Source of the DNA: Candidatus Acidiferrales bacterium
GTDB taxonomy: Bacteria > Acidobacteriota > Terriglobia > Acidiferrales > 2-02-FULL-67-57
Assembly (NCBI GenBank): GCA_965247455.1
Contig: CBDFHE010000016.1
Location: 79,101 to 143,100 of the forward strand
Direction of reading: 5' to 3'
DNA: 64,000 nt
The notes under the pieces: model-generated
Database searches by the model: none
What the model saw: only the letters and a program-made list of their open reading frames with translations
Told to the model about the DNA's origin: nothing
Program-made: the position numbers and the translations under genes
Part shown: piece by piece, positions 15,789-64,000 of the stretch
Position numbering within the stretch: position 1 is the first letter of the stretch
Layout: each line of letters starts with the position of its first letter

Positions 15789-15803
15789 TTCGGAGGACCT
15801 ATC

Positions 15804-16226: not shown

Positions 16227-16235
16227 GGTTTTCCG

Positions 16236-17015: not shown

Positions 17016-17059
17016 AGGTTCCCGGAGTAACCAAGAACGTGCGTTTGCGCCCAACTGAA

Positions 17060-18403
17060 ATGGAGTTGAAGCGACTGGCTCTCGGCGCTGCTGTCCTGCT
17101 GGCGGTGGCACTGTTACCGCTGCGGGTCGAGCCTCAGCAAGACTGGTTCCGCACCGGTACCGGCTTGGGGGTGGAGAAGGTGCGCGTGGCGCTGCCGTCC
17201 TTCGCCGCCTTCGCGACCGAGGCGGAAACCCTGGCGGGAATTTTCAACGCCACCCTGTGGAACGACTTGGCGATGAGCGGTGTGGTGGAACTGGTCAGCT
17301 CCAGCTTCTATCTCTTGGAGGGGCCCACCCGCCCCAGCGACCTCAACCACGAAGCCTGGGTTGCGAGTCCCACCGAGGCTCACATGGTGGCCTACGGCAA
17401 CCTGGAGTTTCTCAGCGCCGACCTGGCGGTCAACGCCTGGCTTTCGGACGTGCGCAATCCGGGCGCACCGGCGGTGATCGCCAAGCGCTACCGCGGCGAC
17501 CGCACCGAAGACCAGGCCCGGCAGTTGGCGCACCAATTCGCCGACGAGATTGTCGAACGCTTGAGCGGCGGCCAGCCCGGCATTGCCCGCACGCAAGTGG
17601 CTTTCGTCAGCAACCGCTCGCGCAAAAAGGAAATCTGGGTGATGGACTACGACGGCCACAACCAGCACCGCGTGGGCCGCTGCGGCATCCGGTGCCTGAC
17701 GCCGCGCTGGTCGTTCGACCGCACTCGCCTGGCCTACACCGCCTATTCCACCCCGGCGGGGAAATCGGTTCCCCGGGTGGACATTCATCTCCATTCCCTG
17801 CTGACCAAACGCCCGCTGGCCTTCCCGTCCTTGGGCGGAACCACCACCACGCCCGCCTGGTCGCCCGACGGCAGGCGGCTGGCGCTTTCTTCCAGCCGCA
17901 CCCGCGACCACGAAATCTATGTGTGCAACCCCGACGGCAGCAATCTCCGCCGGCTGACTTTTTCCCAAGGAGTGGACATCTCCCCGGCCTGGAACCCGCG
18001 TACCGGCGAGCAGATTGCCTTTGTCAGCGACCGCGGGGGCTCGCCGCAAATTTATCTAATGGACGCCGATGGCTCCAACGTCGAGCGGCTGACCAGCGGC
18101 GAAGGCTACGCTGTCTCGCCCGCCTGGTCGCCCAATGGGCAGATTATTGCCTTCGCCTGGCAGCACGACGACGCCCCCCTCGACATCTATGTAATGGACG
18201 TGGCCACCCGCCAGACCGTCCAGTTGACCCGCGACGCCGGCCGCAACGAGCAGCCCAGTTGGGCTCCCGACGGCCGCCACCTGGTTTTCCAGTCCACCCG
18301 CAGCGGCCGCAACCAGGTCTGGATGATGCTGGCCGACGGCACCGGGCTGCGGCAGTTGACTTTCGAGGGGGCCAATACCGCCCCCCATTGGACTCCGCGG
18401 TGA
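17060..18403 (+). CDS. tolB: TolB beta-propeller protein
   Basis: Signal peptide, TQVAFVS..KEIWVMDYDG, repeated P(A/S)WSPDG PD40 motifs; operon position. Confidence 0.9.
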   Translation: MELKRLALGAAVLLAVALLPLRVEPQQDWFRTGTGLGVEKVRVALPSFAAFATEAETLAGIFNATLWNDLAMSGVVELVSSSFYLLEGPTRPSDLNHEAWVASPTEAHMVAYGNLEFLSADLAVNAWLSDVRNPGAPAVIAKRYRGDRTEDQARQLAHQFADEIVERLSGGQPGIARTQVAFVSNRSRKKEIWVMDYDGHNQHRVGRCGIRCLTPRWSFDRTRLAYTAYSTPAGKSVPRVDIHLHSLLTKRPLAFPSLGGTTTTPAWSPDGRRLALSSSRTRDHEIYVCNPDGSNLRRLTFSQGVDISPAWNPRTGEQIAFVSDRGGSPQIYLMDADGSNVERLTSGEGYAVSPAWSPNGQIIAFAWQHDDAPLDIYVMDVATRQTVQLTRDAGRNEQPSWAPDGRHLVFQSTRSGRNQVWMMLADGTGLRQLTFEGANTAPHWTPR

Positions 18404-18496
18404 GAGGCGAATTTTTGATTGAATCCCGCGGCAGCCGCGGCTATGATGAGCGGGGCTGGTGGAAAATGACCGAATCTGACTACCGGAGGTGAACAG

Positions 18497-19246
18497 ATGG
18501 ACTTGCGGCGTGACATTCGCTGGATAGGACTTTTGACGTTGTTGGCACTGGTATTGTTGGCCGGGGGTTGCGCCAAGAAGGCGCCCTTGCCGCCGCCACC
18601 CACTCCATTACCGCCGCCGGCTCCGGCCGCTCCCACGGCCACGCTGCGAGCGATGCCGAGCGTGATCGAGAAAGGACAGTCCACCAACTTGTCGTGGAAT
18701 TCGACCAACGCTACCGACCTGCGCTTGGAACCCGGACTGGGTTCGGTGGGCCCGCAGGGATCGAGCAGCGTTTCACCCGACCGCTCCACCACCTACACGC
18801 TGGTGGCCACCGGTCCGGGCGGCCGCGCCGAAGCCACCGCTCGCATCACGGTCAACATACCACCGCCGCCACCGCCACCGGTAACACGCCCCTCGGCCGA
18901 GGAGGCCTTCGCGCAAAGGGTCCGCGATGCCTTCTTTGACTTTGACAAGGCTGACGTACGCCCCGATGCGCGCGTGGCGCTGACGCAGTCGGCTGAGTTC
19001 CTGCGCGAGTACCCCGAGGCGCGGGTGTTGCTGGAGGGACACTGCGACGAGCGCGGCACCACCGAATACAACCTAGGGCTGGGCGACCGCCGGGCCAACT
19101 CGGCCAAGGAATTTTTGGTCTCGCTCGGGGTTGGCCCCGACCGCATCGAGACCATCAGCTACGGCAAGGAGCGCCCGTTCTGCTCTGAGTCGAACGAAGA
19201 GTGCTGGCAGTTGAACCGGCGCTCGCATTTCGTTCTCTTGCGTTGA
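18497..19246 (+). CDS. pal: Peptidoglycan-associated lipoprotein Pal with an extra Ig/PKD-like insert
   Basis: Lipobox LAGGC, FFDFDK, EGHCDERGTTEYNLGLGDRRA, ISYGKERP and NRR. Confidence 0.92.
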   Translation: MDLRRDIRWIGLLTLLALVLLAGGCAKKAPLPPPPTPLPPPAPAAPTATLRAMPSVIEKGQSTNLSWNSTNATDLRLEPGLGSVGPQGSSSVSPDRSTTYTLVATGPGGRAEATARITVNIPPPPPPPVTRPSAEEAFAQRVRDAFFDFDKADVRPDARVALTQSAEFLREYPEARVLLEGHCDERGTTEYNLGLGDRRANSAKEFLVSLGVGPDRIETISYGKERPFCSESNEECWQLNRRSHFVLLR

Positions 19247-19286
19247 GGGGTGTCGCGGGAGTCGGGTCGGCAAGGAGGGATGACCC

Positions 19287-20186
19287 GTGAAGAAAGTTTT
19301 GTTTCTGGCTGCCGTGGCGGCTTTGGTGGGCGTGCTGCTGTGGCCGTCACCGGCCGTCGCGCAAAAGCAGAGAGACATCCTCATCCAAGTGCAGCGCGAT
19401 GTAACCACGCTGCAACAACAACTCCGCGACCTGCAACAGAGCGTTGACCGCAACAACGCCGTCCTCAAGACTTTGATCGAGCAGGCCGTGGACGCCGTCA
19501 ACCACATGGGCACCGTCATCGACGGGTTGGAACAGTCGGTCCAGCAGGCACAGGCCCGTACCAACACGCGCGTGAATTCCCTGGTGGTGCAGGTGCAGTC
19601 GCTGCGGGATACGGTGGACGAGGTGGGCGCGCGCCTGGGCCGCATCTCCCAGCAACTGGCGGAAACGCAGGGGGTGATGCGGAGTGTGGATGCGCGACTG
19701 GCTACTACTCCCCCGCCCGCTCCGGTGGAAGGCTCGGAAGGAGAGCCGGGCGCAGCGGCCGCCCCGCCCACAGGGACACCCGCGCAAACCAGAGTTCCCT
19801 CGGCCCAGTCGCTTTATGACACCGCCTTGCGCGACTTCATTGCCGGCAACTACGACCTCTCGCAGCAACAGTTCAACGACTACCTGCGCTACTACGGACG
19901 GACCGAGTTGGCCGGCAACGCCCAGTTCTATCTGGGCGAGGTCCAGTACCGCCAGCACAACTACCAGTCCGCCATCGAGAACTACAACCGAGTGCTCACG
20001 CAGTATTCCAACAGCAACAAGATTCCGGCGGCGCTGCTGAAGAAAGGCTACGCGCTGCTGGAGTTGAAGCAGCAGGCTGAGGGTGTGCGGGTTCTGCGCC
20101 GGTTGCTGGAAAAGTATCCACGCTCCGACCAGGCGCCCATGGCGCGCGCGCGGCTGCGGCGGCTGGGAGCGATCGCTTCGCGCTGA
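19287..20186 (+). CDS. cpoB: CpoB/YbgF (coiled coil + TPR)
   Basis: Signal peptide, coiled coil, TPRs (AGNAQFYLGE, KIPAALLKKG); directly after pal. Confidence 0.88.
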   Translation: MKKVLFLAAVAALVGVLLWPSPAVAQKQRDILIQVQRDVTTLQQQLRDLQQSVDRNNAVLKTLIEQAVDAVNHMGTVIDGLEQSVQQAQARTNTRVNSLVVQVQSLRDTVDEVGARLGRISQQLAETQGVMRSVDARLATTPPPAPVEGSEGEPGAAAAPPTGTPAQTRVPSAQSLYDTALRDFIAGNYDLSQQQFNDYLRYYGRTELAGNAQFYLGEVQYRQHNYQSAIENYNRVLTQYSNSNKIPAALLKKGYALLELKQQAEGVRVLRRLLEKYPRSDQAPMARARLRRLGAIASR

Positions 20187-26227: not shown

Positions 26228-27316
26228 CTAGTGTACTGTCCCGGAAATATATGAGCAAAGTCGTTCGACCTTAGCGAGGATGGATTCGGCCGTGGCGGTC
26301 CAGACGAAAGGACTGGTGTTGGCGTTGTAATGTTCGACGAAGCGCTCGATGTTACGGACGAGAGCCTTGACGCTGGAGAAGGAACCTCGGCGAATGGCCT
26401 TCTGGGTAATGATGCCGAACCAGCGTTCGACTTGGTTGAGCCAGGACGCATAGGTTGGGGTGAAATGAACGTGGTAGCGGGGACGCCGAGCGAGCCAAGC
26501 GCGGACTTTGGGATGTTTGTGAGCAGCGTAGTTATCGACGATGAGATGGACGTCGAGGTTGTGCGGCACACTGCCGTCGATCTGACGCAGGAAAGTGAGG
26601 AACTCCTGATGACGGTGTCGCGGTTTACAGCGGGTGATGACTCTCCCGGTGGCCACATCGAGAGCCGCGAACAGAGTGGTCGTGCCGTGACGTTTGTAAT
26701 CATGGGTGACGCCTTCGACGTAGCCGAGGCCCATGGGGAGAACGGGCTGAGTTCGCTGAAGAGCTTGAACCTGGGTCTTCTCATCGACCGAGAGCACCAC
26801 GGCGTGGTCCGGGGGATTGAGGTAGAGACCGACGATGTCGCGGACTTTCTCGACGAAGAACGGGTCGTTGGAAATCTTGAAATGCCGCTGGCGATGCGGC
26901 TGGACGCCGAACAGATCGAACCACCGCTGGACCGTGCTCTTTGAGACTCCCGTGTGTTCCGCCATGGAACGCACGCTCCAGTGCGAACGATCGGGAGGTT
27001 CGGTTTGCAGGGCCGTGTTGATGACTTCCGCAACACGTTCATCCTCATGCGTGCGGGGGCGTCCGGGACGCAGTTCATCGTGTAGTCCGGGGATTCCATG
27101 TTCACGATAGCGCTTTCGCCACTTGCCCACGGTCGTATTGGTGACACCCAGACGCCGGGCCACGGTAGAGCCGGGAACGCCTTCGGCGCAGGCCAGCACA
27201 ATCTGGGCCCTCAGCACCAGACTATGCGGCAAGGTTCGGGAGCGGGCGAGGCTCCCCAGTTCCGATTCCTCACTCTCACTGAGAGTGAGGGGAGTAACGG
27301 GGCGACCGCGTGGCAT
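26228..27316 (-). CDS. IS630-family transposase
   Basis: HTH, RPGRP, WSVRSMA, VDEKTQVQAL, YKRHGTTTLFAAL, DNYAAHK and PTYASWLNQVERWF. The stop codon is formed by the target TAG. Confidence 0.93.
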   Translation of the reverse strand: MPRGRPVTPLTLSESEESELGSLARSRTLPHSLVLRAQIVLACAEGVPGSTVARRLGVTNTTVGKWRKRYREHGIPGLHDELRPGRPRTHEDERVAEVINTALQTEPPDRSHWSVRSMAEHTGVSKSTVQRWFDLFGVQPHRQRHFKISNDPFFVEKVRDIVGLYLNPPDHAVVLSVDEKTQVQALQRTQPVLPMGLGYVEGVTHDYKRHGTTTLFAALDVATGRVITRCKPRHRHQEFLTFLRQIDGSVPHNLDVHLIVDNYAAHKHPKVRAWLARRPRYHVHFTPTYASWLNQVERWFGIITQKAIRRGSFSSVKALVRNIERFVEHYNANTSPFVWTATAESILAKVERLCSYISGTVH

Positions 27317-27379
27317 GGGCATACCTCCAGAGGCCAAAGGTTGCCCATTAATATATCGCTTATTTCCGGGACAGTACAC
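26231..27379 (-). mobile_element. IS630-family insertion sequence, 1149 bp
   Basis: Perfect 19-bp terminal inverted repeats GTGTACTGTCCCGGAAATA; TA duplication within CTAG at both ends. Confidence 0.93.
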
Positions 27380-36566: not shown

Positions 36567-38876
36567 ATGAAGCTCCTCGACCGATACATCTTCCGTGAAA
36601 TTCTGGGCTATACCCTGGTAGGGGTTGGGGTGTTTGGGTTTGTGCTGATGACCCCGGAGCTGCTTCGTTTGAGCGAGTTGCTGGCGCGCGAGAGTATGGG
36701 GCCGGTTCAGACGGCCAAGCTCTTCCTGAGCGTGCTCCCACCGAAGCTGGTGTGGGCGCTTCCGCTGGGCGTTCTGGTGGGTTTGCTTATGGGTGTCAGC
36801 CGACTGGCGGCCGACCGCGAGCTGATGGCTTTGCAGGTGTCCGGAGTGGGGTTGGTGCGACTGCTCCGGCCTGCGCTCGTTTTTGCCTTGCTGGGTACAC
36901 TTGCGACCTTGGCGATCACGGTTGGATGGGGGCCGGCTGCTGCCCGCATCCTGCGGCAATTGCAGGCGGAATTGGGCGCCCGCCAACTGTTTTTCGAGGT
37001 TCGCCCCCGAGTTTTTGAAGAGCGCCTTCCCGACCGCATCCTCTATGTGCAGGAGACCGAAAGTGGCGGAACCGAATGGAAAGGGGTCTTCCTGGCAGAC
37101 CTGAGCGATCCGGAGATATCCAAGCTGACGCTGGCGCAAACCGGCTTGGCGATTCCCGGTTCCGAAAAACAAAACATGCGGCTGCATTTGAGCAAGGGTG
37201 CTACGCATGAATACATCTTGGGCGAACCCGACCGCTATTCGCTATCCACCTTCGAAGAGAGTTCGTTGGCTATGGCGGTGCCTACGCGCGGGGTCAAGTT
37301 GGAGGTTCGCCGCAATGCTGAAATGAGTGTGGGGGGACTCTGGGCTGCCAGCCAGCAAGGCCCGCGCTGGCGCAGCGCGCGCGCCGATCTTTACCGGCGC
37401 TTCGTTCTGCCGACTTCCTGCTTGGTGTTTGGTCTGTTGGCGTTTCCGTTGGGACTGCTTGCTCAAACGTCGGGACGCGCGGTGGGGTTCGTGTTGGCGG
37501 TAGGGTTTGCCATCGGCTACTACTTTCTGTTCCTCATCGGCGACCGCTTAGCCCGCGAGGGAGCCATTGCGCCGGCGGTGGGAGTTTGGATGCCCAACCT
37601 GGTCTTCTTGCTGCTTGCGATTGTCCTCTTGCGTTGGCTTGGGCGTCCCCGCGGAGGTGGGTCCCTCGCCGTCATTGTCCGCGACTGGCTGGGGCGAGTG
37701 GGCGAGAAGAAAAGGAAATCGCTTGCCATTCAGCTTGACGGTGCTTCGCCCGCGCGGAGAGGGGGGGCGATAAGATCCCGCTTGCCCCGTACCCTTGATC
37801 TCTACGTCGTGCGCGGGGTCCTCTTCCATTTTCTGTTGGCTGGAACTTCCCTGCTCATCTTATTTAACCTGTTTAGTATCTTAGAGATAGTGGACGACAT
37901 CGCCGCGCGCCAAATTCCCTGGTCGGTCGTGGGTCGGTTGATTTGGTATCAAGCGCCGCAGGTAGTCTACTGGATGACGCCGCTGGCGCTGCTGCTGGCC
38001 GTGCTGGTGGAGTTGGCTCTGTTGAGCAAGCGCAATGAAGTGGTGGCGATCAAGGGCGCAGGCATCAGCCTCTACCGCATTGCCGTGCCAGTGCTGGTGC
38101 TGGCGTTGGCGCTGGGCGGCTTGCTGTTCTGGCTGGACTCGACCTATCTTCCCACCGCCAACCAACAGCGGGAGGCGCTGCGCAACTACATCAAAGGGCG
38201 GCCGCCCCAAACCTTCTTCCAAGCTGAGCGCCGGTGGATCTTTGGCGAAGCGCCGCGCATCTACCACTATTCCTTTTTCGATCCCGGTCGCAACTTGCTG
38301 GCTCGCCTGCATGTATTCGAGTTGGACCCGGTAGATTTCTCTTTGCGCCGGCGCCTGTTCGCCGAGCGCGCCCATTGGGCGCCGCATCTACGATGCTGGG
38401 TGTTGGAGCGTGGTTGGGAGCGCGTCTTTGACGGGAACCAGACGGTTTCCTATGTCCCCTTCGAGGTAGCCGGTTTCCCGGAACTCGCAGAGCCCCCAGA
38501 CTATTTTAAGAAGGAAGTGCGGGAATCGGATCAGATGAACTGGGCTGAGTTGGGGGACTACATCACGGAGCTGCAGCAGAGCGGGCTGGATGCAACCCGC
38601 CTGGTTGTGCAGTGGCACAAGAAATTTGCTTTTCCCTCGATTGCGTTGGTGATGGTGCTTTTGGCTTTTCCCTTCGGTCTCGCAGCCGGCCAACGCGGCG
38701 GGGCGGTGGGCGGGATTGCCCTGGGCATTGGGTTGGGTCTTCTTTACTGGGTCTTGACCGGTTTTTTTGAGGCCCTGGGAAACTTTGAGTTGTTACCGCC
38801 GCTCCTGGCCGGCTGGGGCCCCAACATGCTGTTCGCGGCCGCCGGGGTTTATTTGATTCTCCAGGTCGAAACCTAG
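36567..38876 (+). CDS. lptF: Fused LptF-LptG LPS export permease
   Basis: Two tandem YjgP/YjgQ modules: MKLLDRYIFREI...DRELMALQVSG, and RTLDLYVVR...RNEVVAIKGAGISLYR...WHKKFAFP. Confidence 0.85.
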   Translation: MKLLDRYIFREILGYTLVGVGVFGFVLMTPELLRLSELLARESMGPVQTAKLFLSVLPPKLVWALPLGVLVGLLMGVSRLAADRELMALQVSGVGLVRLLRPALVFALLGTLATLAITVGWGPAAARILRQLQAELGARQLFFEVRPRVFEERLPDRILYVQETESGGTEWKGVFLADLSDPEISKLTLAQTGLAIPGSEKQNMRLHLSKGATHEYILGEPDRYSLSTFEESSLAMAVPTRGVKLEVRRNAEMSVGGLWAASQQGPRWRSARADLYRRFVLPTSCLVFGLLAFPLGLLAQTSGRAVGFVLAVGFAIGYYFLFLIGDRLAREGAIAPAVGVWMPNLVFLLLAIVLLRWLGRPRGGGSLAVIVRDWLGRVGEKKRKSLAIQLDGASPARRGGAIRSRLPRTLDLYVVRGVLFHFLLAGTSLLILFNLFSILEIVDDIAARQIPWSVVGRLIWYQAPQVVYWMTPLALLLAVLVELALLSKRNEVVAIKGAGISLYRIAVPVLVLALALGGLLFWLDSTYLPTANQQREALRNYIKGRPPQTFFQAERRWIFGEAPRIYHYSFFDPGRNLLARLHVFELDPVDFSLRRRLFAERAHWAPHLRCWVLERGWERVFDGNQTVSYVPFEVAGFPELAEPPDYFKKEVRESDQMNWAELGDYITELQQSGLDATRLVVQWHKKFAFPSIALVMVLLAFPFGLAAGQRGGAVGGIALGIGLGLLYWVLTGFFEALGNFELLPPLLAGWGPNMLFAAAGVYLILQVET

Positions 38877-53279: not shown

Positions 53280-54050
53280 ATGGCCCCTTTGCGGTTGACC
53301 TTCCTCGGCACCGGCACTTCCATGGGCGTTCCCACGCTGGGTTGCCCCTGCGCCGTCTGCCGCTCCGACGACCTGCGCGACCAGCGCACCCGCCCCAGCC
53401 TGCTGCTCCAATACGACGGCCGGGCGGTAGTGATTGACACCTCTCCCGACTTCCGCCAGCAGGCGCTGCGCGCGGGCCTCAGCCGGGTGGACGCCGTTCT
53501 CTACACCCACGCGCACGCCGACCACATCCTGGGGCTGGACGACCTGCGCCCCTTCAACCTCCGGCAAGGCCAAATTCCGCTCTATGCCAATCGCGCCACC
53601 CGCGAGACTATCCAGCGCATCTTCTCCTATGTGTTCGGCGGCGGCACGCTCAACAGCACCATCCCCGAGGTGAGGTTCGCAGATATTGACGGGCCCTTTG
53701 ACCTCTTCGGCCTGCGCTTCGTGCCCTTTCCGCTCGAACACGGCGACATGGGCGTGCTCGGGTTCCGCTTCGGGCGGGCCGCCTACGCCACCGACTTCAG
53801 TACCATCCCGCCCGCGGCGCTGGCCGAGTTGCAGGGCCTGGACGTGCTCATCTTGGACGCCCTCCGCGACCGCCCGCATCCCAACCATTCCACCGTGGAG
53901 CAGTCGGTGGAGCTGGTGCGGCAACTGCAACCCCGCCGGGCCTACTTCACCCACATCGCCCACGACCTCGCCCACGCGGAGACCAATGCGCGCCTGCCCG
54001 CCGGGGTCGAGCTGGCCTACGACGGCCTGGCGCTGGAGGTGGAGAGTTGA
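53280..54050 (+). CDS. Metallo-beta-lactamase-fold hydrolase (PhnP-like phosphodiesterase)
   Basis: LGTGTSMGVP..GC.C..C, THAHADHILG, HPNH and THIAH. Confidence 0.9.
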   Translation: MAPLRLTFLGTGTSMGVPTLGCPCAVCRSDDLRDQRTRPSLLLQYDGRAVVIDTSPDFRQQALRAGLSRVDAVLYTHAHADHILGLDDLRPFNLRQGQIPLYANRATRETIQRIFSYVFGGGTLNSTIPEVRFADIDGPFDLFGLRFVPFPLEHGDMGVLGFRFGRAAYATDFSTIPPAALAELQGLDVLILDALRDRPHPNHSTVEQSVELVRQLQPRRAYFTHIAHDLAHAETNARLPAGVELAYDGLALEVES

Positions 54051-55126: not shown

Positions 55127-57679
55127 ATGGTCGGCGAAGAGAGCAACATTGACCGGCTGCTGAAAACACAGCCTACAATCAGCCCAGAGCCGCGCTCTCA
55201 CAAGACCCCCGTAACCATACTCTTCACCGATGTGGTGGGCTCGACCGCCTACTTCGACCGCTACGGCGACACCGCCGGCGTAGTCATGCTGGAGCGCCAC
55301 ACGGAGCTGGCCACCGGCGCGGTGGCCGAGTTCCAGGGCAACCTCATCAAGACCATCGGCGATTCGGTGATGGCCGATTTTCCTGACCCTGTCCACGGCG
55401 TGCGGGCGGCGGTCGAAGGCCAGCGCCGTTTGCTGCAGCTCAACCAAACCCTGCCGGAGCGCGACCGGGTGCAGCTTCGGATTGGGATCAATTCCGGCCA
55501 CGGCATTCGCCGCGGCAACGACGTCTTTGGCGACGCCGTCAACGTCGCCGCCCGCATCACCAAGAAGACCGGCCCGGCGCAAATCCTGATCTCGCGCTCG
55601 GTGCGCGACGCCATCCTGCCGGAGTCCGACCTGCGCTGCACTTGGCTGGGGAAGTTCGCCTTCGCGGGCAAAGCGGAGAAGGAGGACCTCTTCGAAGTGG
55701 TCTGGACCGAAACGGCCGCCTACACCGAGCTGCGCGCCCACATGACCGCGGCGCTGGCGCGGGGCGAGTTGGTCTCTCCCGGCCTGCGCGTGGACGACTT
55801 GGTGCAGCCGACCCACTCGCCCACGCCCGCTCCCGGTGACGAGCTCACGCTGGAACTGTCCACCACACCCGTACAGGTGGTTCTGGGGGCGCGCTACGAC
55901 TTGCTAGGTGAAGTTGGCAGCGGCGGCATGGGTATCGTGCACAAGGCGCGCGACCGCGAGACCGGCGAGTTGGTGGCGCTGAAAATCCTCAAGCCGGAAA
56001 TCGCCGCCGACCAGCGCGCGATGGAGCGCTTCAAGAACGAGCTTCGCCTGTCCCGCAAGATCACCCACAAGAACGTCTGCCGCGTGTACGAGTTCAACCG
56101 CGCCGGCGGTGTGGCCTACATCTCGATGGAATTCGTGGAAGGCGAAAGCCTGCGCGCCGTCCTGAAACGCTTTGGCACTCTGCCGGTCCGCAAAGGGATT
56201 CAGATTGCCCGGCAGATCTGCGCTGCCTTGCGCGAGGCGCACGCGCAGCAAGTCGTCCACCGTGACCTCAAGCCGGAAAACGTGATGATGGATCAGAATG
56301 GCAACGTCAAGGTGATGGACTTTGGCATTGCACGCTCGGTGGAAGCCGGCACCACCTCCACCGGCGCGTTTATCGGTACGCCCGCCTACATGGCCCCCGA
56401 ACAAGCTGAAGGCAAGCCGGTGGACCGCCGCGCCGACATCTACTCCTTCGGCCTGCTCCTCTATGAGATGTTCACCGGCGTACCCGCCTTCAGCGGCGAC
56501 ACCCCGTTGAGCGTCGCCCTCAAGCACATTCGGGAAACCCCGCCGCCGCCCAGCCAGCACGACCCCACCGTGCCGGCCCCGGTGGAGCGGGTCATCCTCC
56601 GGTGCCTGGAGAAAGACCCTGCCAAGCGTTTCCAGTCGGTGGACGAGTTGGAAGCTGCCCTGGTGCGTCAGGCCGCGCCCACGCCCCCTCCGCTCGTGCC
56701 GGTGCCGGCCAGGGCGCCCGACCTGCTGGGCGCCGCCGCCGAGCCCAGACGGAGCCGGGCGTGGGTGGCGGTGGTCGGCCTCGCGCTGGCAGGCGCTCTG
56801 ATGTTCTACTTCCTTTCCGGTCGAGGATGGTTCGCGCCGGCGGAACAAGAAAGCCAACCTGCGGCAGAAACGATGGCGCAGGAAGCGTCGGCAGTGGGGC
56901 AGTCGCCGCCGGTGGAGGGTTCTGCTTCCGGGCAGGTCTCGCCTCCCACTCCCGTGCTTCCGCCTGCAAGCGCGCCGCCTGCTCCTACGACTCCCCCAGA
57001 CGAAGTTCTTTTCAATTCAGCTTTGCGAGCTCTCAGCGGCGGCAACTACGATCTTGCCCGGCAGCAATTTGACGCTTTTCAGCGCCTCTATCCGAAGAGC
57101 GAATTGGCCGACCAGGCGCAGTACTACCTGGCCGACTCCTACCACCACCAGCACAACCTGCGCCAGGCCATCGCCGGCTACGAAAAGTTGCTGCGCGACT
57201 TCCCCACCAGCGACAAGGCTCCGCGCGCCCAACTGAGGAAGGCGGAAGCTCTGATACAATCGGGCGAAAGAGTTGCTGGCGTGCGCGAGCTGCGCTCACT
57301 GATTGCCCGGTATCCGAACTCAGACGAAGCACGGCACGCCCAGCAGCTATTGCAACGGTTCGAGCGGTTCCAGCAAGCCGATTCCAACCTGGGCCTGCAG
57401 GTGCGCGAGTTGAATCCGCAGATGGCCCGCCGCCTCGGACTTTCCTCCACGGAAGGCGGCTTGCTGGTGCGCCAAGTGGAGCCCGGGAGTTTTGCGCAAA
57501 AACTCGGGCTGCGGCGCGGGGATATAATTACGGCAGTCAACGGCCGCTCGGTGGGCAGCCAGCGAGCGTTGATGGACATGCAGCGGTCGCTGACGCCCGG
57601 CCGCGAGGTGGTGGTTCGCATCAAGCGACGCCAGCGCGGCCGCGGCATGCGCGACCTTACCCTCCGCGCCACCCCCTAG
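55127..57679 (+). CDS. Class III adenylate cyclase - Hanks Ser/Thr kinase - TM - CpoB-like TPR - PDZ fusion protein
   Basis: Cyclase: FTDVVGST, KTIGDSVM, DVFGDAVNVAAR. Kinase: GSGGMG, HRDLKPEN, DFG, GTPAYMAPE. TM: WVAVVGLALAGALMFYFL. Then TPRs and the PDZ segment LGLQV...LGLRRGDIITAVNG. Confidence 0.9.
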   Translation: MVGEESNIDRLLKTQPTISPEPRSHKTPVTILFTDVVGSTAYFDRYGDTAGVVMLERHTELATGAVAEFQGNLIKTIGDSVMADFPDPVHGVRAAVEGQRRLLQLNQTLPERDRVQLRIGINSGHGIRRGNDVFGDAVNVAARITKKTGPAQILISRSVRDAILPESDLRCTWLGKFAFAGKAEKEDLFEVVWTETAAYTELRAHMTAALARGELVSPGLRVDDLVQPTHSPTPAPGDELTLELSTTPVQVVLGARYDLLGEVGSGGMGIVHKARDRETGELVALKILKPEIAADQRAMERFKNELRLSRKITHKNVCRVYEFNRAGGVAYISMEFVEGESLRAVLKRFGTLPVRKGIQIARQICAALREAHAQQVVHRDLKPENVMMDQNGNVKVMDFGIARSVEAGTTSTGAFIGTPAYMAPEQAEGKPVDRRADIYSFGLLLYEMFTGVPAFSGDTPLSVALKHIRETPPPPSQHDPTVPAPVERVILRCLEKDPAKRFQSVDELEAALVRQAAPTPPPLVPVPARAPDLLGAAAEPRRSRAWVAVVGLALAGALMFYFLSGRGWFAPAEQESQPAAETMAQEASAVGQSPPVEGSASGQVSPPTPVLPPASAPPAPTTPPDEVLFNSALRALSGGNYDLARQQFDAFQRLYPKSELADQAQYYLADSYHHQHNLRQAIAGYEKLLRDFPTSDKAPRAQLRKAEALIQSGERVAGVRELRSLIARYPNSDEARHAQQLLQRFERFQQADSNLGLQVRELNPQMARRLGLSSTEGGLLVRQVEPGSFAQKLGLRRGDIITAVNGRSVGSQRALMDMQRSLTPGREVVVRIKRRQRGRGMRDLTLRATP

Positions 57680-57761
57680 GCAATGCTCAGCTTCGTGTTC
57701 CGCAAAGGCCGCGAAGCCTGGCGTGGTGACCCCTGCTAAAGGATCCCCATGGCCTGTTTGC

Positions 57762-57787
57762 GCGGGTGCTGAGCACCTCTTCCGGAC
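57762..57787 (-). repeat. R5 repeat, empty copy (GGTGC-TGA-GCACCTCTTCC)
   Basis: GCGGGTGCTGAGCACCTCTTCCGGACT matches the R5 core. Confidence 0.65.
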
Positions 57788-57857
57788 TAACGGAATTGTT
57801 TGCTGCGAATGGGGTCCTTCGGCTGCGCTCTGCAACTTATGGGCGCGCCGAACCGGC

Positions 57858-60587
57858 CTAGAAGCGGATGTGGTAGGTGATTTGGGTGTTGAAGCCGGGG
57901 GCGTCCACGCCCGAGCCGTGGTAGCGGTAGTTTCGGTCGAGCAGGTTTTCGAGCACAAAGACTAGGTCAGTTTGCTCGCTGACCTGATAGCCGCCGCGCA
58001 GATTGAAGGTGACGAAGCCGGGCGTCTTGGTGAAGAAGAGCGCGCTCTCGACACCCGCGCCCAGCACGCGGTCGAGCACTTGGTCGAGCGTCTCGCCCGT
58101 CGCCAGCAGCACGCCACCGCTCACCAGCCCGCGGGCGACGGCGCCGTTGTTGAAGAAGCGCGCAATGCTCGTCCGCGAGCGCAGCGCTCCGATGCGCTGG
58201 TCGGCCAGCTCCAGTGAGGACAAGCGGTCTTGCTTGCTCACCAGGTTGCTGTAGCCCTCCAGCCAGTAGCGCTTGCCCGGTGCCTGCCAGCGCAAGCTGA
58301 GGAACCCGTTGGCGGGCGGCAGGCCGCCTTCGATGTCGGGCGCGCCGCCGTTCACTTTGTCCCGCCCGCGCAGGTAGGTGAAGTTGGCGTGGGCCGACCA
58401 GGAGTTGCTCAACTGCCCCTGCCACGCGCTTTCGATCCCCCAGATGCGCACGGCTCCCACGTTGGCGCGCACCAGCACCGGCCGGGAATCCACCGCCGTC
58501 AGCACCGCGCCCAAGGGCAATTGCTCCACGATGGTCTGCCCGCCGATGTTCTGTCCCACCGCCCCCAGCGGCAGCAGCAGCGCGCGTTTGGTGATGAAGT
58601 CGCTGATCTCGTTGCTGAAGCCGGTGAGCGAGGCGGTCATGCGCCCGGTGCGGAAGCGCAGGCCCAACTCGTAGTTGTAGAGCACTTCCGGTTCGAGCGT
58701 CGTCACCGGCTGGCCGCTAGCGGTAGCGTTCGTGCCAGCCGTGCTGCCTACTTCCCCGCCGGCGGCGCTGCCGTCGTCGGGAGAAACCTCAAAGCCGTTT
58801 GAGGTCAGCCCCACGGAGCTGAAGTCGGTGACGTTGGGCGCGCGAAAGCCGCGCCGCACCGTGCCGACCAACTGAACCTGCTGGGTCAGGCGCACCACCG
58901 TGCCCAGGTTGAATGTCACATCGTGCAGCGTGGTGGAAAAATCGGGCACCAGTGGCTGGCCGTTGGCGTCGCGCAGGTTGGCGTCGGCAAAGGTGCGGAA
59001 GTTGAAGGCGCTGTAGCGCAGCCCGCCTTGCAGTCGCACCCGGTTGGGGAACAAGTCCAAACCGTGCTGGTAGAAGAGGCCGTAGGTGGTGTAGCGGGAC
59101 TCGTCCGGGAAGCGCCCGCGCACATCTGTCCGGCTGCTGGTCAGCGGGTCGAAGCGGGTGCGGGTGGAGTCAATGTACTCGTCGTAGATTTCCCCGCCGA
59201 AGACCAGCGATTGGCGCGCGCCGATATGCGTAGTGGCCTGCACCTGATAGCCGAGGGCGGCGGTCTGGTTGGACTCGTCGGTGATGGCCGCCAGTGGGTT
59301 GCCCGCGCCGCCTTGCGTCCGGCGGTCGTCGCGCTGGCGGTTGTAAGAGAAGGTGGCGCTCAGGTTGTCCAGCCCGCCCGCCGGCTGCTTTTCGTAGCGC
59401 AGGTAGAAGAAGTCCAGAATCTGCGGGTCGAAAGCGTGGATCAGGTCGCCGTTGCCGCCGTTCAGCTTGTCGTAGCGGCGTCCGCCGCGTTGTTCGCTGC
59501 GCATGTAGCTGGCGCTGAGGTTGTGCCCCGGTGCCGGCTTCCAGAAGAAGCGCGTGAAGCTGGCAAACTGGGTAAAGGCGGTGTCTTGCAGCCGGGCGCC
59601 CAGCACGTCCGAGGGCAAGCCCAGGAAGCGGGTGACGGCGGCGTGTGAGTCGCCGCCCCGGCCCGCCCGCAAGTCCTGCACGCGGCTCCCGGAGGCGCCC
59701 CCGAACAAATTCCAGTTGCGGCTGCCATAGGAGAGGCGCAGTTTGCCGCCGGTGGAGAAGTCGGCGCTGCGGACGAAGGGCGTGAACTCGCCCCGGAAGT
59801 GCCGGTCGGTCGTGTCCACCTGCGGGCGCATCGGCAGCACATTGACGGTTCCGCCCAGGCTGTCGCTGCCGTACTGCGCCGACGCGGGCCCGCGCGCCAC
59901 TTCCAGCCGCTCGACAAAATTGGGGTCCACCAGCGCTAAATATTGGTTGGGGCCGGGGCGGAAGGTGGAATTATTCAACCGAATCCCATCAATCAGGTGC
60001 AGCACTTGCTGCCCGGTCAGCCCGCGAACCACCACCGCTCCCTGATGGGCGGTGGTCTGCTGCACCATCACGCCTACCTCTTCCCGCAGCGCCTGCGGTA
60101 GGATGACGCCCGGGCGGATCAGCAGTTTGTCTCCACCTACGACGTTCACCTGTCCGGGAAGGTTGAAGGCGTTTTCCACTTCGCCGCGCCCCGGGGTGAC
60201 GGTCACCAGCGTCGCCAGGGGCGCAATCTGCAAGACAAACCGAAGCGGCTTCGCTTCCGCGCGCGGCACGCTGACCGCCGCGCTGCTGGCCGCCATACCA
60301 GGTGCATGCACCACCACTTCGTAGCTGCCGGCAGTAAGGTCGCTCAGGAGAAATTCGCCTCCCGCGCTGGTTACAGCCGTTCCAGCCGGTGTTTGTCCTT
60401 GCCGGTAGGCGGTCACCTGAGCGCCCGCAATCATCGCCCCGGAAGGGTCCAGTACCTGACCGTGAATTTCATAGGCGGGGGTGGAGGCAGCAGCGGACGC
60501 GGAGAAAGCAAGCAGCAGAAGGGTCAAAGGAAGAAACAGCCCAAGTGGGGAGCGCAGATAAGGTTTGGGTAGCTTCATTGCTCTCAT
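57858..60587 (-). CDS. TonB-dependent outer-membrane receptor with N-terminal carboxypeptidase-regulatory-like domain
   Basis: Signal peptide, GQVLDPSGAMIAGAQV, plug (ERLEVARGPASAQYGSDSLGGTVN), FRAPN, ENLLDRNY and terminal aromatic residue (HIRF). Confidence 0.92.
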   Translation of the reverse strand: MRAMKLPKPYLRSPLGLFLPLTLLLLAFSASAAASTPAYEIHGQVLDPSGAMIAGAQVTAYRQGQTPAGTAVTSAGGEFLLSDLTAGSYEVVVHAPGMAASSAAVSVPRAEAKPLRFVLQIAPLATLVTVTPGRGEVENAFNLPGQVNVVGGDKLLIRPGVILPQALREEVGVMVQQTTAHQGAVVVRGLTGQQVLHLIDGIRLNNSTFRPGPNQYLALVDPNFVERLEVARGPASAQYGSDSLGGTVNVLPMRPQVDTTDRHFRGEFTPFVRSADFSTGGKLRLSYGSRNWNLFGGASGSRVQDLRAGRGGDSHAAVTRFLGLPSDVLGARLQDTAFTQFASFTRFFWKPAPGHNLSASYMRSEQRGGRRYDKLNGGNGDLIHAFDPQILDFFYLRYEKQPAGGLDNLSATFSYNRQRDDRRTQGGAGNPLAAITDESNQTAALGYQVQATTHIGARQSLVFGGEIYDEYIDSTRTRFDPLTSSRTDVRGRFPDESRYTTYGLFYQHGLDLFPNRVRLQGGLRYSAFNFRTFADANLRDANGQPLVPDFSTTLHDVTFNLGTVVRLTQQVQLVGTVRRGFRAPNVTDFSSVGLTSNGFEVSPDDGSAAGGEVGSTAGTNATASGQPVTTLEPEVLYNYELGLRFRTGRMTASLTGFSNEISDFITKRALLLPLGAVGQNIGGQTIVEQLPLGAVLTAVDSRPVLVRANVGAVRIWGIESAWQGQLSNSWSAHANFTYLRGRDKVNGGAPDIEGGLPPANGFLSLRWQAPGKRYWLEGYSNLVSKQDRLSSLELADQRIGALRSRTSIARFFNNGAVARGLVSGGVLLATGETLDQVLDRVLGAGVESALFFTKTPGFVTFNLRGGYQVSEQTDLVFVLENLLDRNYRYHGSGVDAPGFNTQITYHIRF

Positions 60588-60605
60588 TTGTTCGGCTGCC
60601 CGCCG

Positions 60606-60630
60606 CTAGTTGCAATTGGATTGCAACTAG
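60606..60630. promoter_or_regulatory. Palindromic operator CTAGTTGCAAT-TGG-ATTGCAACTAG (core GTTGCAA-N5-TTGCAAC), probable Fur-family site
   Basis: Perfect 11-3-11 inverted repeat between the -10 element and the receptor start; the motif recurs at 60686-60704 and 62119-62137. Confidence 0.75.
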
Positions 60631-60637
60631 AACATTA

Positions 60638-60667
60638 ACTCTATCGTCTGCCACGTGAATCAGTCAA
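60638..60667 (-). promoter_or_regulatory. Candidate sigma70 promoter for the TonB-dependent receptor
   Basis: TTGACT (60667-60662), 18-bp spacer, TAGAGT (60643-60638). Confidence 0.55.
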
Positions 60668-60714
60668 GAGTGGAGAGAATTTTCTGTTGCAGGCTGGTTG
60701 CAACTAGTTGCAAC
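60668..60714 (+). repeat. 47-bp direct repeat, left copy, abutting the IS left end
   Basis: 45/47 identical to 62101-62147; contains the perfect 18-bp palindrome GTTGCAACTAGTTGCAAC. Confidence 0.92.
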
Positions 60715-62100
60715 TGTAGCTGCAAAGTGAGAATGTCCTATTTGCGCAAAGTAGGAATGTCCTCTTTCATCAGGGCCAGGAGGGACGATGAGAGAGGAGC
60801 GAATCGAATTGAGCCAACGGGAGCAGGATTGGTTGAAGGTACTCCACCAAGTCGAGCAGGGCTATCTGACCCAGGTGGAAGCGGGCCGGCGGGTGCAGGT
60901 GAGCGTACGCCACCTGCGGCGTCTGCTGAGACGGGTGCGGGCGGAGGGGGACAGGGGCGTAGTGCATCGGCTGCGGGGGCGGCCCTCGAACCGGAAGATT
61001 CCAGCGGCCCTCCAGGGGCGCATCCTGGCCCAGGTGCGGCGGCGCTACGCCGACTTTGGGCCCACGCTGGCCAGCGAGCACCTGGCGCGAGATGGGTGGC
61101 AGGTCAGCCGGGAGACGCTGCGGCAGTGGATGACCGCCGCCGGGCTGTGGCGGTCGCGCCGGCAGCGGAGGCCGGCGGTGCACGTCTGGCGAGAGCGGCG
61201 GGCCGCCTTCGGCGAGTTGGTGATGATGGACAGCTCGCCCTATCGCTGGTTGGAGCGGCGCGGACCTCCCGTGCAGTTGATCGCGCTGATCGACGACGCT
61301 ACCAGCCGGGTCTGGGGCCGCTTCGCCGCCCAGGACTCGACCGAGGAAAACCTGCGCACCCTGGCAGGCTGGCTCCGGCGCTGGGGACGGCCGCGGGCAC
61401 TCTATACCGACAAAAGCAGCCTGTTCCGCACCACCCGCTCGGCCCGGCTCGACGAGCAGCTCGGCGGTCAGCCGGCCCGCACCCAGATCGGGCGGGCCCT
61501 GCAGGAGTTGGGGATCGAGTGGATTCCCGCCCACAGCCCCCAGGCCAAGGGGCGCATCGAGAGACTATTCGGCACCTTGCAGGACCGCCTGGTCAAGGAG
61601 ATGCGCCTGACCGGGGTGCACACGGTGGAGCAGGCCAACCGCTTCCTGGCAGCAGTCTTCCTGCCTTTCTGGGAGCAGCGCTTCACCGTCGCTCCGCGCC
61701 AGCCGCACGATGCCCACCGCCCGCTGGGAGGCACCCAGCGGCTGGAGTCAATCCTGAGCGTGCGCGAACCGCGCCGGGTGGCAGGCGACTACACCGTGCG
61801 CTGGCAGGGCCAGCGCTGGGCGATCCCGCGCGCCCAGGTGCGAGCGGGGTTGCGGGGGGCGCGGGTGGAGGTCGAACGGCGGCTCGACGGCAGCCGCTGG
61901 GTCCGCTTCCGCGGCTCTTATCTCAGCCTGCGGCCCTGCCCGAGCCCGCCGCCCGCGCCCGCAACCCCCTTCGGCCTACGGCCTACGGGGCTTGCGGGCC
62001 CAAGGAAAGGCAAACGAAAGTACATTCTCCCTCCCGATCACCCTTGGAGGAGGACATTTCTATCTGGCAAAAAACCGGACATTTCTACTTTGCGTTGACA
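60715..62100 (+). mobile_element. IS1202-group (ISNCY) insertion sequence, 1386 bp
   Basis: TGT...ACA ends; imperfect inverted repeats with two internal (A/G)AATGTCC / GGACATTT boxes at each end. Confidence 0.88.
60788..62098 (+). CDS. IS1202/ISNCY-type DDE transposase (integrase-core fold)
   Basis: HTH, YADFGPTLASEHL, GELVMMDSS, IDDATSR, YTDK, SPQAKGRIERLFGTLQDRL and C-terminal PDHPWR. Confidence 0.9.
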   Translation: MREERIELSQREQDWLKVLHQVEQGYLTQVEAGRRVQVSVRHLRRLLRRVRAEGDRGVVHRLRGRPSNRKIPAALQGRILAQVRRRYADFGPTLASEHLARDGWQVSRETLRQWMTAAGLWRSRRQRRPAVHVWRERRAAFGELVMMDSSPYRWLERRGPPVQLIALIDDATSRVWGRFAAQDSTEENLRTLAGWLRRWGRPRALYTDKSSLFRTTRSARLDEQLGGQPARTQIGRALQELGIEWIPAHSPQAKGRIERLFGTLQDRLVKEMRLTGVHTVEQANRFLAAVFLPFWEQRFTVAPRQPHDAHRPLGGTQRLESILSVREPRRVAGDYTVRWQGQRWAIPRAQVRAGLRGARVEVERRLDGSRWVRFRGSYLSLRPCPSPPPAPATPFGLRPTGLAGPRKGKRKYILPPDHPWRRTFLSGKKPDISTLR

Positions 62101-62147
62101 GAGTGGAGAGAATTTTATGTTGCAAGCTGGTTGCAACTAGTTGCAAC
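62101..62147 (+). repeat. 47-bp direct repeat, right copy, abutting the IS right end
   Basis: 45/47 identical to 60668-60714. Confidence 0.92.
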
Positions 62148-62179
62148 ACGACCCGCGTTTTGCTCTTAGGAGAGCCTGC

Positions 62180-62626
62180 TCAGGTCCGGCAGTGGGTGCA
62201 GTAGCCGCCCATCTCCACCCGCGTCAGGATGATGTGGAAGTGGCATTCCCGCTCCACTTCCCCCTTCAGGCGCTCGAACAGGTGGCTTTCGAACTCCACC
62301 ACCTTGCCGCAGCGCAAGCAGGCCATGTGCAGGTGGTCACGTTGCGGGCGACGCTCGTAGTAGTGCCCGTCGCCGCGCAGGTGGAGCAAGTCCAGCTCGT
62401 CCACCAGCCCGTGGCGCTTCAGCAGCTTGAGTGTGCGATAGACGGTGACGCGGTCGATGCTGGGGTCGAGCCGTTGGGCCTTGCGCAGGATTTGGCTGGC
62501 GTCCAGATGTTGCTTGGCGGTCTCAATCACACCCAGGATGGTGCGCCGCTGCCGCGTCATGCGCACCCCGCGCACCATCAACTCCGCTTGCAAGCGCCCC
62601 GGCGCTTCCGTCTTCGGCATCGGCAT
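62180..62626 (-). CDS. Fur-family metalloregulator (Fur/Zur/Mur/Nur/PerR subtype unresolved)
   Basis: RMTRQRRTIL, HLDA, VTVYRTLKLL, DHLHMACLRCG and C-terminal CTHC. AGGAGG RBS. Confidence 0.92.
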   Translation of the reverse strand: MPMPKTEAPGRLQAELMVRGVRMTRQRRTILGVIETAKQHLDASQILRKAQRLDPSIDRVTVYRTLKLLKRHGLVDELDLLHLRGDGHYYERRPQRDHLHMACLRCGKVVEFESHLFERLKGEVERECHFHIILTRVEMGGYCTHCRT

Positions 62627-62789
62627 CGCAACGCCTCCTGAAACCCGGTTGCAATAAGCTTACTCCCCTTCCCCCGCCCCGGTCAAGTCCAGCTGATAGC
62701 AACTTTTGGCATTTGAAAATGATGAACACTCGTAGATGATATTGCGACCATGGGGGATGAGAGACGTTAGGCAGAAGGAAGCAAGAGAA

Positions 62790-63278
62790 ATGGCTAAGCC
62801 CAAAAAGAGAAGGAAAAAGAAACCGTACTCTGAACGAACAGACCGCGAAAAAATCTCTAACAATTGGCGGAAAACTCTAGCTTTATTTCAAAAAGGTGAG
62901 TATTCAGTTTCTATCATTCGTGCTGCGACGACCGCAGAGCTCGCGACGAATCTAGTTATTCGAGCAGAATTGGCGCAAGGCAGGAATCTGCCGCCTTCGT
63001 TTGTAGACAGGTTGATGAAATGGGCAAATGGCCTTCAGGGGAAGATGAACATGCTCATATTGCCAATTGTGAAAGATGATTCTCGCCACAAGTCCATCAA
63101 GAAGTTGGCGAAAGTAATTCAAGAAGTCAACGAAGAAAGGAACGGGGTAGTGCACAGAGGTGAATTCAGAGGGAGGAAGATAGCGCGGCGGACACTCGAA
63201 AAGGTTCGTCAAATTGTGCTTGCACTCGTAACTCCTTATGAACCTAGGTTCGACTTGTCGGAACTACCTGACAGTTAG
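62790..63278 (+). CDS. Low-GC standalone HEPN-like protein (putative RNase)
   Basis: Helical 162-aa protein with SIIRAATTAELA and RNGVVH (Rx4H). GC visibly far below the flanks. Confidence 0.6.
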   Translation: MAKPKKRRKKKPYSERTDREKISNNWRKTLALFQKGEYSVSIIRAATTAELATNLVIRAELAQGRNLPPSFVDRLMKWANGLQGKMNMLILPIVKDDSRHKSIKKLAKVIQEVNEERNGVVHRGEFRGRKIARRTLEKVRQIVLALVTPYEPRFDLSELPDS

Positions 63279-64000
63279 TCGGTGGGTTCGCCGGCGGGGA
63301 CGGGGACGTGCTGCTTCTCGGCCAGGTAGGATTCGATCTCTTGCACCAGCGCGGGGACAATCTCTTCTTCCGTCACGCGCTTCACTGCGACGCCATCGCG
63401 GTAGATCATTCCGTTGCCGCGCCCGGCAGCCACGCCCAGGTGTGCGGTGCGCGCCTCGCCCGGCCCGTTCACCGCGCAGCCCATCACCGCCACGTTCAGC
63501 GGTTCCTGAATGTGGGCCACCCGCTGCTCAATTTCGCCCACGATCTTGAACAGGTCCACCTCCAGCCGCCCGCAGGTGGGGCAGGCAATGACGTTCACGC
63601 CGCGCGAGCGGATGTCGAGCGATTTCAAAATCTCGTACGCTACCCGCACTTCCTCCGCCGGCTCGGTGGCCAGCGAGACGCGAATGGTGTCGCCGATGCC
63701 CTCCGCCAGCAGCATCCCCAGCCCGACCGACGACTTGATGGTCCCCGCAAAGGCCGAGCCGGCCTCGGTGATGCCGAGGTGGAAGGGATAGTCCACCTGG
63801 GGCGCCAGCAAACGGTAGGCATCCACGGTGAGCTGCACGTGCGACGCCTTGAGCGAGATGATGATCTCGCGGAAGTCCAGCTCTTCCAGAATCCGAACGT
63901 GGTCGAGCGCGCTTTCTACCATCGCCTCGGCGGTCGGGTAGCCGTACTTTTCCAGCAGCCGCCGTTCCAGCGAACCGGCGTTCACTCCGATGCGGATGGG
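63275..64000 (-). CDS. ispG: (E)-4-hydroxy-3-methylbut-2-enyl-diphosphate synthase (5' end lies beyond the window)
   Basis: PIRIGVNAGSL, ISLKAS, YPFHLGITEAG, GIGDTIRVSL, CPTCGR and VMGCAVNGPGE. Confidence 0.96.
   Translation of the reverse strand, partial: PIRIGVNAGSLERRLLEKYGYPTAEAMVESALDHVRILEELDFREIIISLKASHVQLTVDAYRLLAPQVDYPFHLGITEAGSAFAGTIKSSVGLGMLLAEGIGDTIRVSLATEPAEEVRVAYEILKSLDIRSRGVNVIACPTCGRLEVDLFKIVGEIEQRVAHIQEPLNVAVMGCAVNGPGEARTAHLGVAAGRGNGMIYRDGVAVKRVTEEEIVPALVQEIESYLAEKQHVPVPAGEPTD

Follow-up and report, generated by a model that had tools for sequence, protein, structure and literature searches.

Class III cyclases form their active site at a dimer interface and are active solely as dimers, while PknB-type kinases are activated by dimerisation and trans-phosphorylation. 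The nearest published case that we found of the two kinds of domain in one chain is Pkn2 of Myxococcus xanthus, where a kinase is followed by a cyclase-like domain and then by a transmembrane (TM) helix. Here we describe a receptor gene with both domains in a window of 64 kb from Candidatus Acidiferrales bacterium (assembly GCA_965247455.1, contig CBDFHE010000016.1, positions 79,101 to 143,100 of the forward strand); all positions below are those of the window, that is, of the whole stretch of DNA analyzed. The gene (55127..57679, + strand; taken from the list of open reading frames (ORFs), ATG start, 850 aa) encodes an adenylyl cyclase domain, a Ser/Thr kinase domain, a TM helix, a block of tetratricopeptide repeats (TPR), and a PDZ domain. 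Within an abundant and uncharacterized Acidobacterial family of cyclase-kinase receptors, the receptor represents a sensor variant specific to one lineage, not a new kind of system. It is probably a bitopic inner-membrane receptor of the envelope, clustered by its ligand and provided with two outputs by an ATP-specific cyclase and a PknB-like kinase, with the TPR block as a swappable specificity module.

The architecture and topology proposed for this protein in the first-pass annotation (cyclase, kinase, one TM helix, TPR, PDZ) stood up to the analysis. Four domains were found in a Pfam scan. The cytoplasmic class III adenylyl cyclase catalytic domain (55202..55681, + strand; aa 26-185; PF00211) and the cytoplasmic Hanks-type Ser/Thr kinase domain (55895..56635, + strand; aa 257-503; PF00069) are followed, as had been claimed, by a single TM helix with its N-terminal side predicted to be inside (56759..56815, + strand; aa 545-563); the hydrophobic stretch AWVAVVGLALAGALMFYFL is the only one in the receptor, and RRSR stands just N-terminal to it. 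Next come a Pro/Ala/Ser-rich flexible linker read from the sequence (56816..56995, + strand; aa 564-623), a seven-helix TPR block of the CpoB/YbgF type, assigned by TIGR02795 and by fold and present in two versions among the orthologs (56996..57364, + strand; aa 624-746; YfiO/TPR_6 match at aa 625-743), and an HtrA-type PDZ domain (57389..57634, + strand; aa 755-836 by both PDZ_2 and PDZ_6). Since the two ATP-using domains lie on the N-terminal side of the sole TM helix, the linker, TPR, and PDZ are placed in the periplasm. Long linkers of low complexity border the helix on both sides of the membrane. In an AlphaFold2 model of aa 600-850 (mean predicted local distance difference test score, pLDDT, 86.7), seven helices are followed by the PDZ domain; pLDDT is about 98 in the TPR, 56-60 in the part of the linker covered, and 71-91, a moderate confidence, in the PDZ.

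The concern that such a gene could be an assembly chimera or a fused gene call proved unfounded, and we regard this explanation as practically negligible. Nothing was found in its favor. Full-length co-linear orthologs with 89-90% identity are present in independent assemblies, on JACZYA010000179.1 ("Acidobacteria bacterium B25T1B10", an NCBI metagenome-assembled genome, MAG) and on ENA ERZ23499938 scaffold_733; on the latter the flanking genes are kept as well, the order being metallo-beta-lactamase (MBL)-fold hydrolase, RibF, receptor, TonB-dependent receptor, and Fur. The 90% cluster of the receptor has 39 members, including MFB3154725.1 (Candidatus Acidiferrales bacterium), MCH7766338.1, and MCH8946415.1, all three annotated merely as "protein kinase", and JGI records of the gene exist too. 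The frame is unbroken, codon bias is even along it, and the GC content of codon positions is coding-like (0.81 at the third position versus 0.47 at the second, in a window with 63% GC). We conclude that the gene is genuine and encodes a single-pass membrane protein; its source is a soil-type Acidobacterium that has not been cultured. In the comparisons below we use two orthologs, L001 and L056, both full length and 89-90% identical to the receptor.

The key residues of both catalytic domains are intact, as the first-pass annotation had stated. The cyclase domain scores 54.3 bits against a Pfam cut-off of 21.9, and its nearest solved structure is that of Ma1120 from Mycobacterium avium (PDB 4wp8 and others; E = 2e-25, aa 28-170). 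With positions assigned by what we take to be the residue spacing of Rv1625c, the metal-binding aspartates D35 and D79, the adenine-specifying K75 and D132, and the transition-state residues N139 and R143 are all found, and each is kept in 115-120 of the 120 listed relatives introduced below. By its profile and all six residues, the receptor belongs to the class III adenylyl cyclases, with predicted activity. The kinase domain (193 bits with PF00069) has K286, H378-R-D380, N385, and D398-F-G, kept in 118-120 of the same 120 sequences, and its activation loop contains the motif TTST at aa 408-411. The PknB-type model NF033483 gives 347 bits, below its cut-off of 450, the match being confined to profile positions 3-271 in the absence of PASTA repeats, while the TOMM fusion model TIGR03903 (146 bits versus a cut-off of 706) matches the kinase part only. 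Conservation of the cyclase and kinase residues across the 120 relatives argues that both enzymes are under selection. One could still suppose that the receptor has effectively one output, the cyclase being a dimerization or regulatory module of the kinase, or the kinase a switch of a constitutive cyclase: the cyclase is short and membrane-distal, its closest structure is a minimal cyclase, and its Pfam score is modest. However, conservation of the six canonical residues and a low ratio of nonsynonymous to synonymous substitutions in the cyclase (dN/dS 0.07-0.10) are not what is expected of a pseudo-enzyme, and we consider this explanation quite improbable.

The cyclase-kinase core is widespread. 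A search among 5.8 billion proteins gave thousands of matches, and the figures reported here rest on the 120 of them that were listed, all with E <= 5.5e-175. Apart from the ortholog P0001, the 119 listed relatives align over 58-88% of the query with 46-67% identity, a part that comprises the cyclase and the kinase and, in some of them, more. The named relatives belong to Acidobacteriota or Terriglobia, with the JGI label "serine/threonine protein kinase/class 3 adenylate cyclase". A TM helix follows the kinase in 110 of the 120, and the tails behind it are diverse: by hand count, SPOR occurs in about 42 sequences, a WD40-type beta-propeller in about 21, FGE-sulfatase in 8, TPR in 7, and PEGA in 5, and there are single cases of TonB_C, of BON, of DUF4185, and of a cytoplasmic form with a cyclic nucleotide-binding (cNMP-binding) domain, as well as several multi-TM tails. 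The TPR-tailed paralogs P0004, P0030, P0039, P0051, P0057, and P0065 were considered as CpoB-like and rejected: their TPRs are generic, and TIGR02795 matches them partially with at most 27 bits. A separate observation concerns P0034 (ENA, 924 aa), a family member from outside the window, which has no TM helix and has precomputed T2SSE_N and cNMP-binding matches; it may be a cytoplasmic form able to bind the product of its own family.

The tail of the receptor is, in contrast, rare. With the TPR and PDZ together as a query, the indexed search of the same 5.8 billion proteins gave three fragments of the receptor gene, P0121, P0122, and P0123, and then ordinary YbgF and PDZ proteins. In a HMMER search of 1.84 billion cluster representatives, the combination was present in P0123 alone among the best 150 of 33,026 matches, the rest of these 150 being multi-repeat TPR proteins, multi-PDZ proteases, and CpoB-like proteins of 130-320 aa, with 35-47% identity. 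Since kinase motifs had served as the peptide patterns, a scan of a genome collection yielded mostly relatives with the kinase alone and no cyclase upstream of it. Judging by these searches, the TPR-PDZ tail is restricted to a narrow lineage of Ca. Acidiferrales-like MAGs. The statement of the first-pass annotation that no system with this architecture had been described is therefore correct for the tail and not for the cyclase-kinase-TM core, which is that of a large, automatically annotated Acidobacteriota family of at least 120 proteins.

The TPR block had been noted for its likeness to the CpoB protein encoded in the same window, with a hand count of about 50 identities in 118 positions. 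The number is confirmed exactly: in an ungapped alignment of receptor aa 627-744 (nt 57005-57358) to CpoB aa 175-292 (nt 19809-20162; the earlier CpoB coordinates were 1-3 nt off), 50/118 positions are identical, compared with 9.3 +/- 2.9 and a maximum of 20 in shuffled controls, and BLASTP gives E = 5e-33. The resident cpoB (19287..20186, + strand; TIGR02795, 96.5 bits) closes the tolQ-tolR-tolA-tolB-pal-cpoB cluster (15099-20186), which lies 35 kb from the receptor gene; CpoB serves here solely as a comparator. The receptor TPR scores 86.1 bits with TIGR02795, just under the cut-off of 90.1, 31 bits with NF008068 (cut-off 383), and 59.4 bits with the BamD model TIGR03302 (cut-off 81.4). In the PDB sequence search, YbgF of X. 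campestris (2xev) gave 60 bits, E. coli CpoB (6g5s) 28, and BamD 27. The top Foldseek matches of the modeled TPR are chains A-C of 2xev (TM-score 0.89-0.92, root-mean-square deviation 1.2-1.4 A, E = 2e-8), whereas BamD structures match about 100-fold more weakly (E >= 3e-6) at 20-23% identity. We therefore reject a BamD-type TPR, and with it the grouping with generic BamD/YfiO-type repeats that the first-pass annotation had allowed for; as far as sequence comparison and the predicted fold can tell, the TPR of the receptor is of the CpoB/YbgF family.

How the receptor acquired this block is a different question. Among 143 CpoB-type TPRs, identity to the receptor TPR is 34-47%; the resident CpoB, at 41-42%, ranks only 69th. 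In the tree of TPR domains (neighbor-joining, 500 bootstraps), the receptor TPRs are monophyletic in 500/500 replicates and form a separate clade outside that of the resident and other Acidobacterial CpoBs; the deep nodes are weak. We rejected a recent origin from the resident cpoB by duplication or gene conversion: at the DNA level the two sequences are 54-57% identical, no exact run exceeds 12 nt, and local peaks are absent, and in the tree the receptor TPRs lie outside the clade of Acidobacterial CpoBs. The block thus looks, on phylogenetic grounds, like an old and diverged CpoB paralog and not a recent copy of the resident gene, so that of the "captured CpoB module" postulated earlier the family assignment survives and the recent capture does not. 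Other parts of CpoB are missing: no coiled-coil segment was found in the receptor, where the TPR comes after the TM helix and the Pro-rich linker.

A further observation concerns the evolution of the TPR block among close orthologs. Between the window and L001/L056, the cyclase is 97-98% identical in amino acid sequence (synonymous divergence dS 0.13-0.14, dN/dS 0.07-0.10), the kinase 96-98% (dS 0.24-0.26, dN/dS 0.05-0.08), and the PDZ 92-94% (dS 0.20-0.23, dN/dS 0.15-0.25). The TPR region, aa 621-746, is only 60% identical, with dS 1.05-1.33 and dN/dS 0.19-0.24. Outside the block dS is 0.13-0.28, and only within it is dS raised four- to eight-fold. Nucleotide identity, 93-97% in the preceding part, is down to 57-80% from aa ~615 to ~750 and then recovers. 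The 16 database sequences and the window fall into two discrete TPR classes: version B includes 12 database sequences that are 94-99% identical to P0001 in the TPR, and version A includes the window, P0121, and P0122, with P0123 closer to A. Positive selection in place was rejected as the cause, the dN/dS being about 0.2 and dS being elevated in this block only; the dN/dS between the versions indicates that both are functional. The pattern points to a recombinational swap of the sensor module with a more distant relative, and would also fit two alleles maintained for a long time.

One of these sequences, P0123 (ENA ERZ23498356 scaffold_458093; L055, 487-1038), deserves a separate mention. In its ORF of 183 aa, the beginning of the cyclase (34-46 aa) is fused in frame to the final TPR repeat and the PDZ, from whose interior another 22 aa are missing. 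The ORF looks like what an internal deletion would leave of the receptor gene, or else like an assembly error on a contig of 1.7 kb.

The affinity of the TPR to CpoB, both in sequence and in fold, suggests another possibility, namely that the block keeps the CpoB partner and binds the TolA-like protein of the window (16236-17015) or a peptidoglycan (PG) synthase, reporting the state of Tol-Pal or of division through cyclic AMP (cAMP) and phosphorylation. The composition of the family gives this idea some ground. SPOR, a septal-PG-binding module, is the commonest outer domain among the listed relatives, and TonB_C occurs too, which makes envelope or division targeting a likely theme of the family. 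On the other hand, the docking domain UB2H of PBP1B is, as far as is known, a proteobacterial feature. Of 48 signature columns, taken as those with at least 85% conservation across 120 CpoB TPRs, version A retains 28 and version B 26, with several charged or polar positions among the losses; the branching outside the Acidobacterial CpoB clade, the absence of the coiled-coil domain, and the 35 kb between the receptor gene and tol-pal also speak against a shared partner. The TPR versions diverge by 40%, yet the Tol-Pal components are nearly constant: in the version-B MAG GCA_022571295.1, CpoB is 97% identical to that of the window (98% in the TPR), and TolQ, TolR, TolA, TolB, and Pal of related MAGs are 93-98% identical to those of the window. 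No split matching the two TPR versions was seen in the Tol-Pal components, with the limit that TolA contigs could not be linked to a receptor version, and no matching change of partner was seen for CpoB and Pal from the same MAG or for TolA and TolB from related MAGs. In E. coli, CpoB localizes to the septum and its TPR alone binds PBP1B weakly (~5 uM), the full-length protein binding far better; conservation of the partner therefore cannot be assumed. We consider retention of the CpoB partner unlikely. A Tol-Pal role is at best a possible guess, one that fits the envelope-directed SPOR and TonB_C tails and is somewhat weakened by the TPR divergence. Similarly doubtful is its broader form, in which the TPR would dock on the Tol-Pal or division machinery, the PDZ would read exposed C-termini, and the state of the envelope or of constriction would be converted into cAMP and Ser/Thr phosphorylation by one of a large class of dual-output receptors, whose outer domains (SPOR, TonB_C, CpoB-type TPR) would be directed at envelope machines and whose sensors would pass between lineages by recombination.

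The PDZ domain was correctly recognized as HtrA-type in the first-pass annotation. It scores above the cut-offs of two Pfam families (PDZ_6, 38.9 versus 27 bits; PDZ_2, 38.8 versus 27), and its best named matches by NCBIfam, PDB sequence search, and Foldseek are DegP and DegQ of the HtrA family, with 62.6 bits for a DegP-like PDB entry. A protease domain was not found in the receptor, the match to TIGR02037 being limited to the PDZ part. The motif LGL (aa 753-755), at the expected carboxylate-binding loop for peptides, is conserved in all orthologs. These features, and the proximity to the PDZ domains of DegP, DegQ, and DegS, would suit a DegS-like stress sensor in which the PDZ is primary and recognizes the C-termini that unassembled proteins of the outer membrane or periplasm expose, with the TPR as a chaperone-like co-binder; the 90-96% conservation of the PDZ among orthologs whose TPR varies would then reflect a constant class of ligand. 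Such a sensor would, however, lack the protease domain and have no precedent, as the TPR and PDZ occur together in no other high-scoring protein (among the best 150 of 33,026 matches), and its putative peptide-binding domain was modeled with a moderate pLDDT of 71-91. The chances of this scheme seem rather low to us.

The scheme that we prefer is that of a ligand-clustered receptor with two outputs. The TPR and the PDZ are both modules that bind proteins or peptides. A putative ligand, a periplasmic or envelope protein, would bind the TPR/PDZ tail and make the receptors cluster or localize. On clustering, the kinase domains would meet and trans-autophosphorylate the TTST activation loop, and the obligately dimeric cyclase domains would pair and produce cAMP, so that one input would give two outputs, cAMP and phosphorylation. 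A rigid conformational relay through the membrane is unlikely, given the long flexible linkers on both sides of the single TM helix. These linkers, taken together with the dependence of the cyclases on dimers and the activation of the kinases by dimerization, make clustering or localization the simplest model; activation by clustering, the dual output, and the nature of the ligand are what we infer from this combination.

Several points weigh against this scheme. No gene for a cAMP receptor or other cNMP-binding protein, for an FHA protein, or for a PP2C phosphatase was found among the 33 genes of the window scanned with Pfam, about 20 mostly short genes being outside the scan. The cyclase is membrane-distal, behind the kinase, and thus could be constitutive or controlled by phosphorylation and not by clustering. 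The TM helix and topology were called from hydropathy and the positive-inside rule. Finally, full-text literature searching turned up no description of the cyclase-kinase family and no biochemical data on its members.

The genes next to the receptor are housekeeping ones, coding for the MBL-fold hydrolase, RibF, the TonB-dependent receptor, and Fur, and scans for promoters and terminators around the receptor gave nothing decisive. The MBL-fold hydrolase (Lactamase_B_2; 53280-54050) is two genes upstream of the receptor, with ribF between them. Its ortholog in L056 has a precomputed match to the Anti-Pycsar Apyc1 family, which includes cyclic-nucleotide phosphodiesterases; the hydrolase might conceivably take part in the turnover of cAMP. 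The 3' flank of the receptor gene (57680-63280) is rearranged relative to L056 (8838-14618): L056 has a gene for a 206-aa cation-efflux fragment that the window does not have, the window has a 1.4-kb insertion with a transposase-like HTH_28/HTH_29 ORF (60788-62098), and the spacing between Fur and IspG is about 1.7 kb in L056 and about 0.6 kb in the window.

Elsewhere in the window, a 4-kb stretch directly upstream of tolQ (10937-14980) is missing from the related MAG contigs L057 and L059. It contains a DDE transposase gene (11170-12501, - strand) and a gene for a Ser/Thr kinase with C-terminal generic TPRs (12642-14927, - strand), 40% identical to the receptor kinase, and it is a strain-specific insertion beside the Tol-Pal cluster. 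With another transposase gene, of the DDE_3 type with helix-turn-helix domains (26228-27379), there are three insertion-sequence-like genes in the 64 kb (11170-12501, 26228-27379, 60788-62098). Two LptF_LptG matches (507 bits) in the 769-aa ORF at 36567-38876 suggest that it encodes a fusion of LptF and LptG, a permease for the export of lipopolysaccharide.

Acidobacteriota are among the most abundant bacteria of soil, and their signaling is almost unstudied. The family described here couples a cAMP cyclase and a eukaryote-like kinase to one membrane anchor with interchangeable outer sensors; if one ligand does drive both enzymes, it would be a simple natural case in which one input is converted into a diffusible and a protein-bound signal. 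What is new is the divergence confined to the TPR between otherwise nearly identical orthologs. The replacement of this block is a natural experiment, with two versions of the sensor on an identical signaling core, and could help to find the ligand. The exact architecture is rare, and the question that it raises can be tested at the level of the family.

The receptor can be compared with several known systems. Its cyclase is fused to a kinase and receptor parts, whereas Ma1120 is a stand-alone soluble enzyme. Like the receptor kinases PknB and Stk1, the receptor combines a kinase, a flexible juxtamembrane linker, one TM helix, and an extracytoplasmic ligand-binding domain, but it has no PASTA repeats and carries an additional N-terminal cyclase. 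With CpoB/YbgF (2xev, 6g5s) it shares the seven-helix domain of three TPRs, being 34-35% identical to 2xev; in contrast to these proteins, it is tethered to the membrane, lacks a signal peptide and the coiled-coil trimerization domain, and is encoded outside the tol-pal cluster. BamD/YfiO is a lipoprotein with five TPRs, and the receptor TPR falls below the cut-off of its model TIGR03302. The PDZ agrees with those of DegP, DegQ, and DegS in fold, in sequence type, and in the LGL at the expected place of the carboxylate-binding loop, although here a single PDZ is fused behind a TPR block, with no protease domain. Pkn2 of M. xanthus and the TOMM kinase/cyclase fusions (TIGR03903) likewise have a kinase and a class III cyclase-like domain in one chain; in them, however, the kinase comes first, and the nucleotide specificity of the cyclase-like domain of Pkn2 is unclear. 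The cyclase-kinase relatives in Acidobacteriota have the same N-terminal cyclase, the kinase, and usually the TM helix, with 46-67% identity over aa 1-~520 or beyond, and differ from the receptor in what follows, namely SPOR, beta-propeller, FGE-sulfatase, PEGA, generic TPR, TonB_C, BON, or multi-TM tails in place of its CpoB-type TPR and PDZ.

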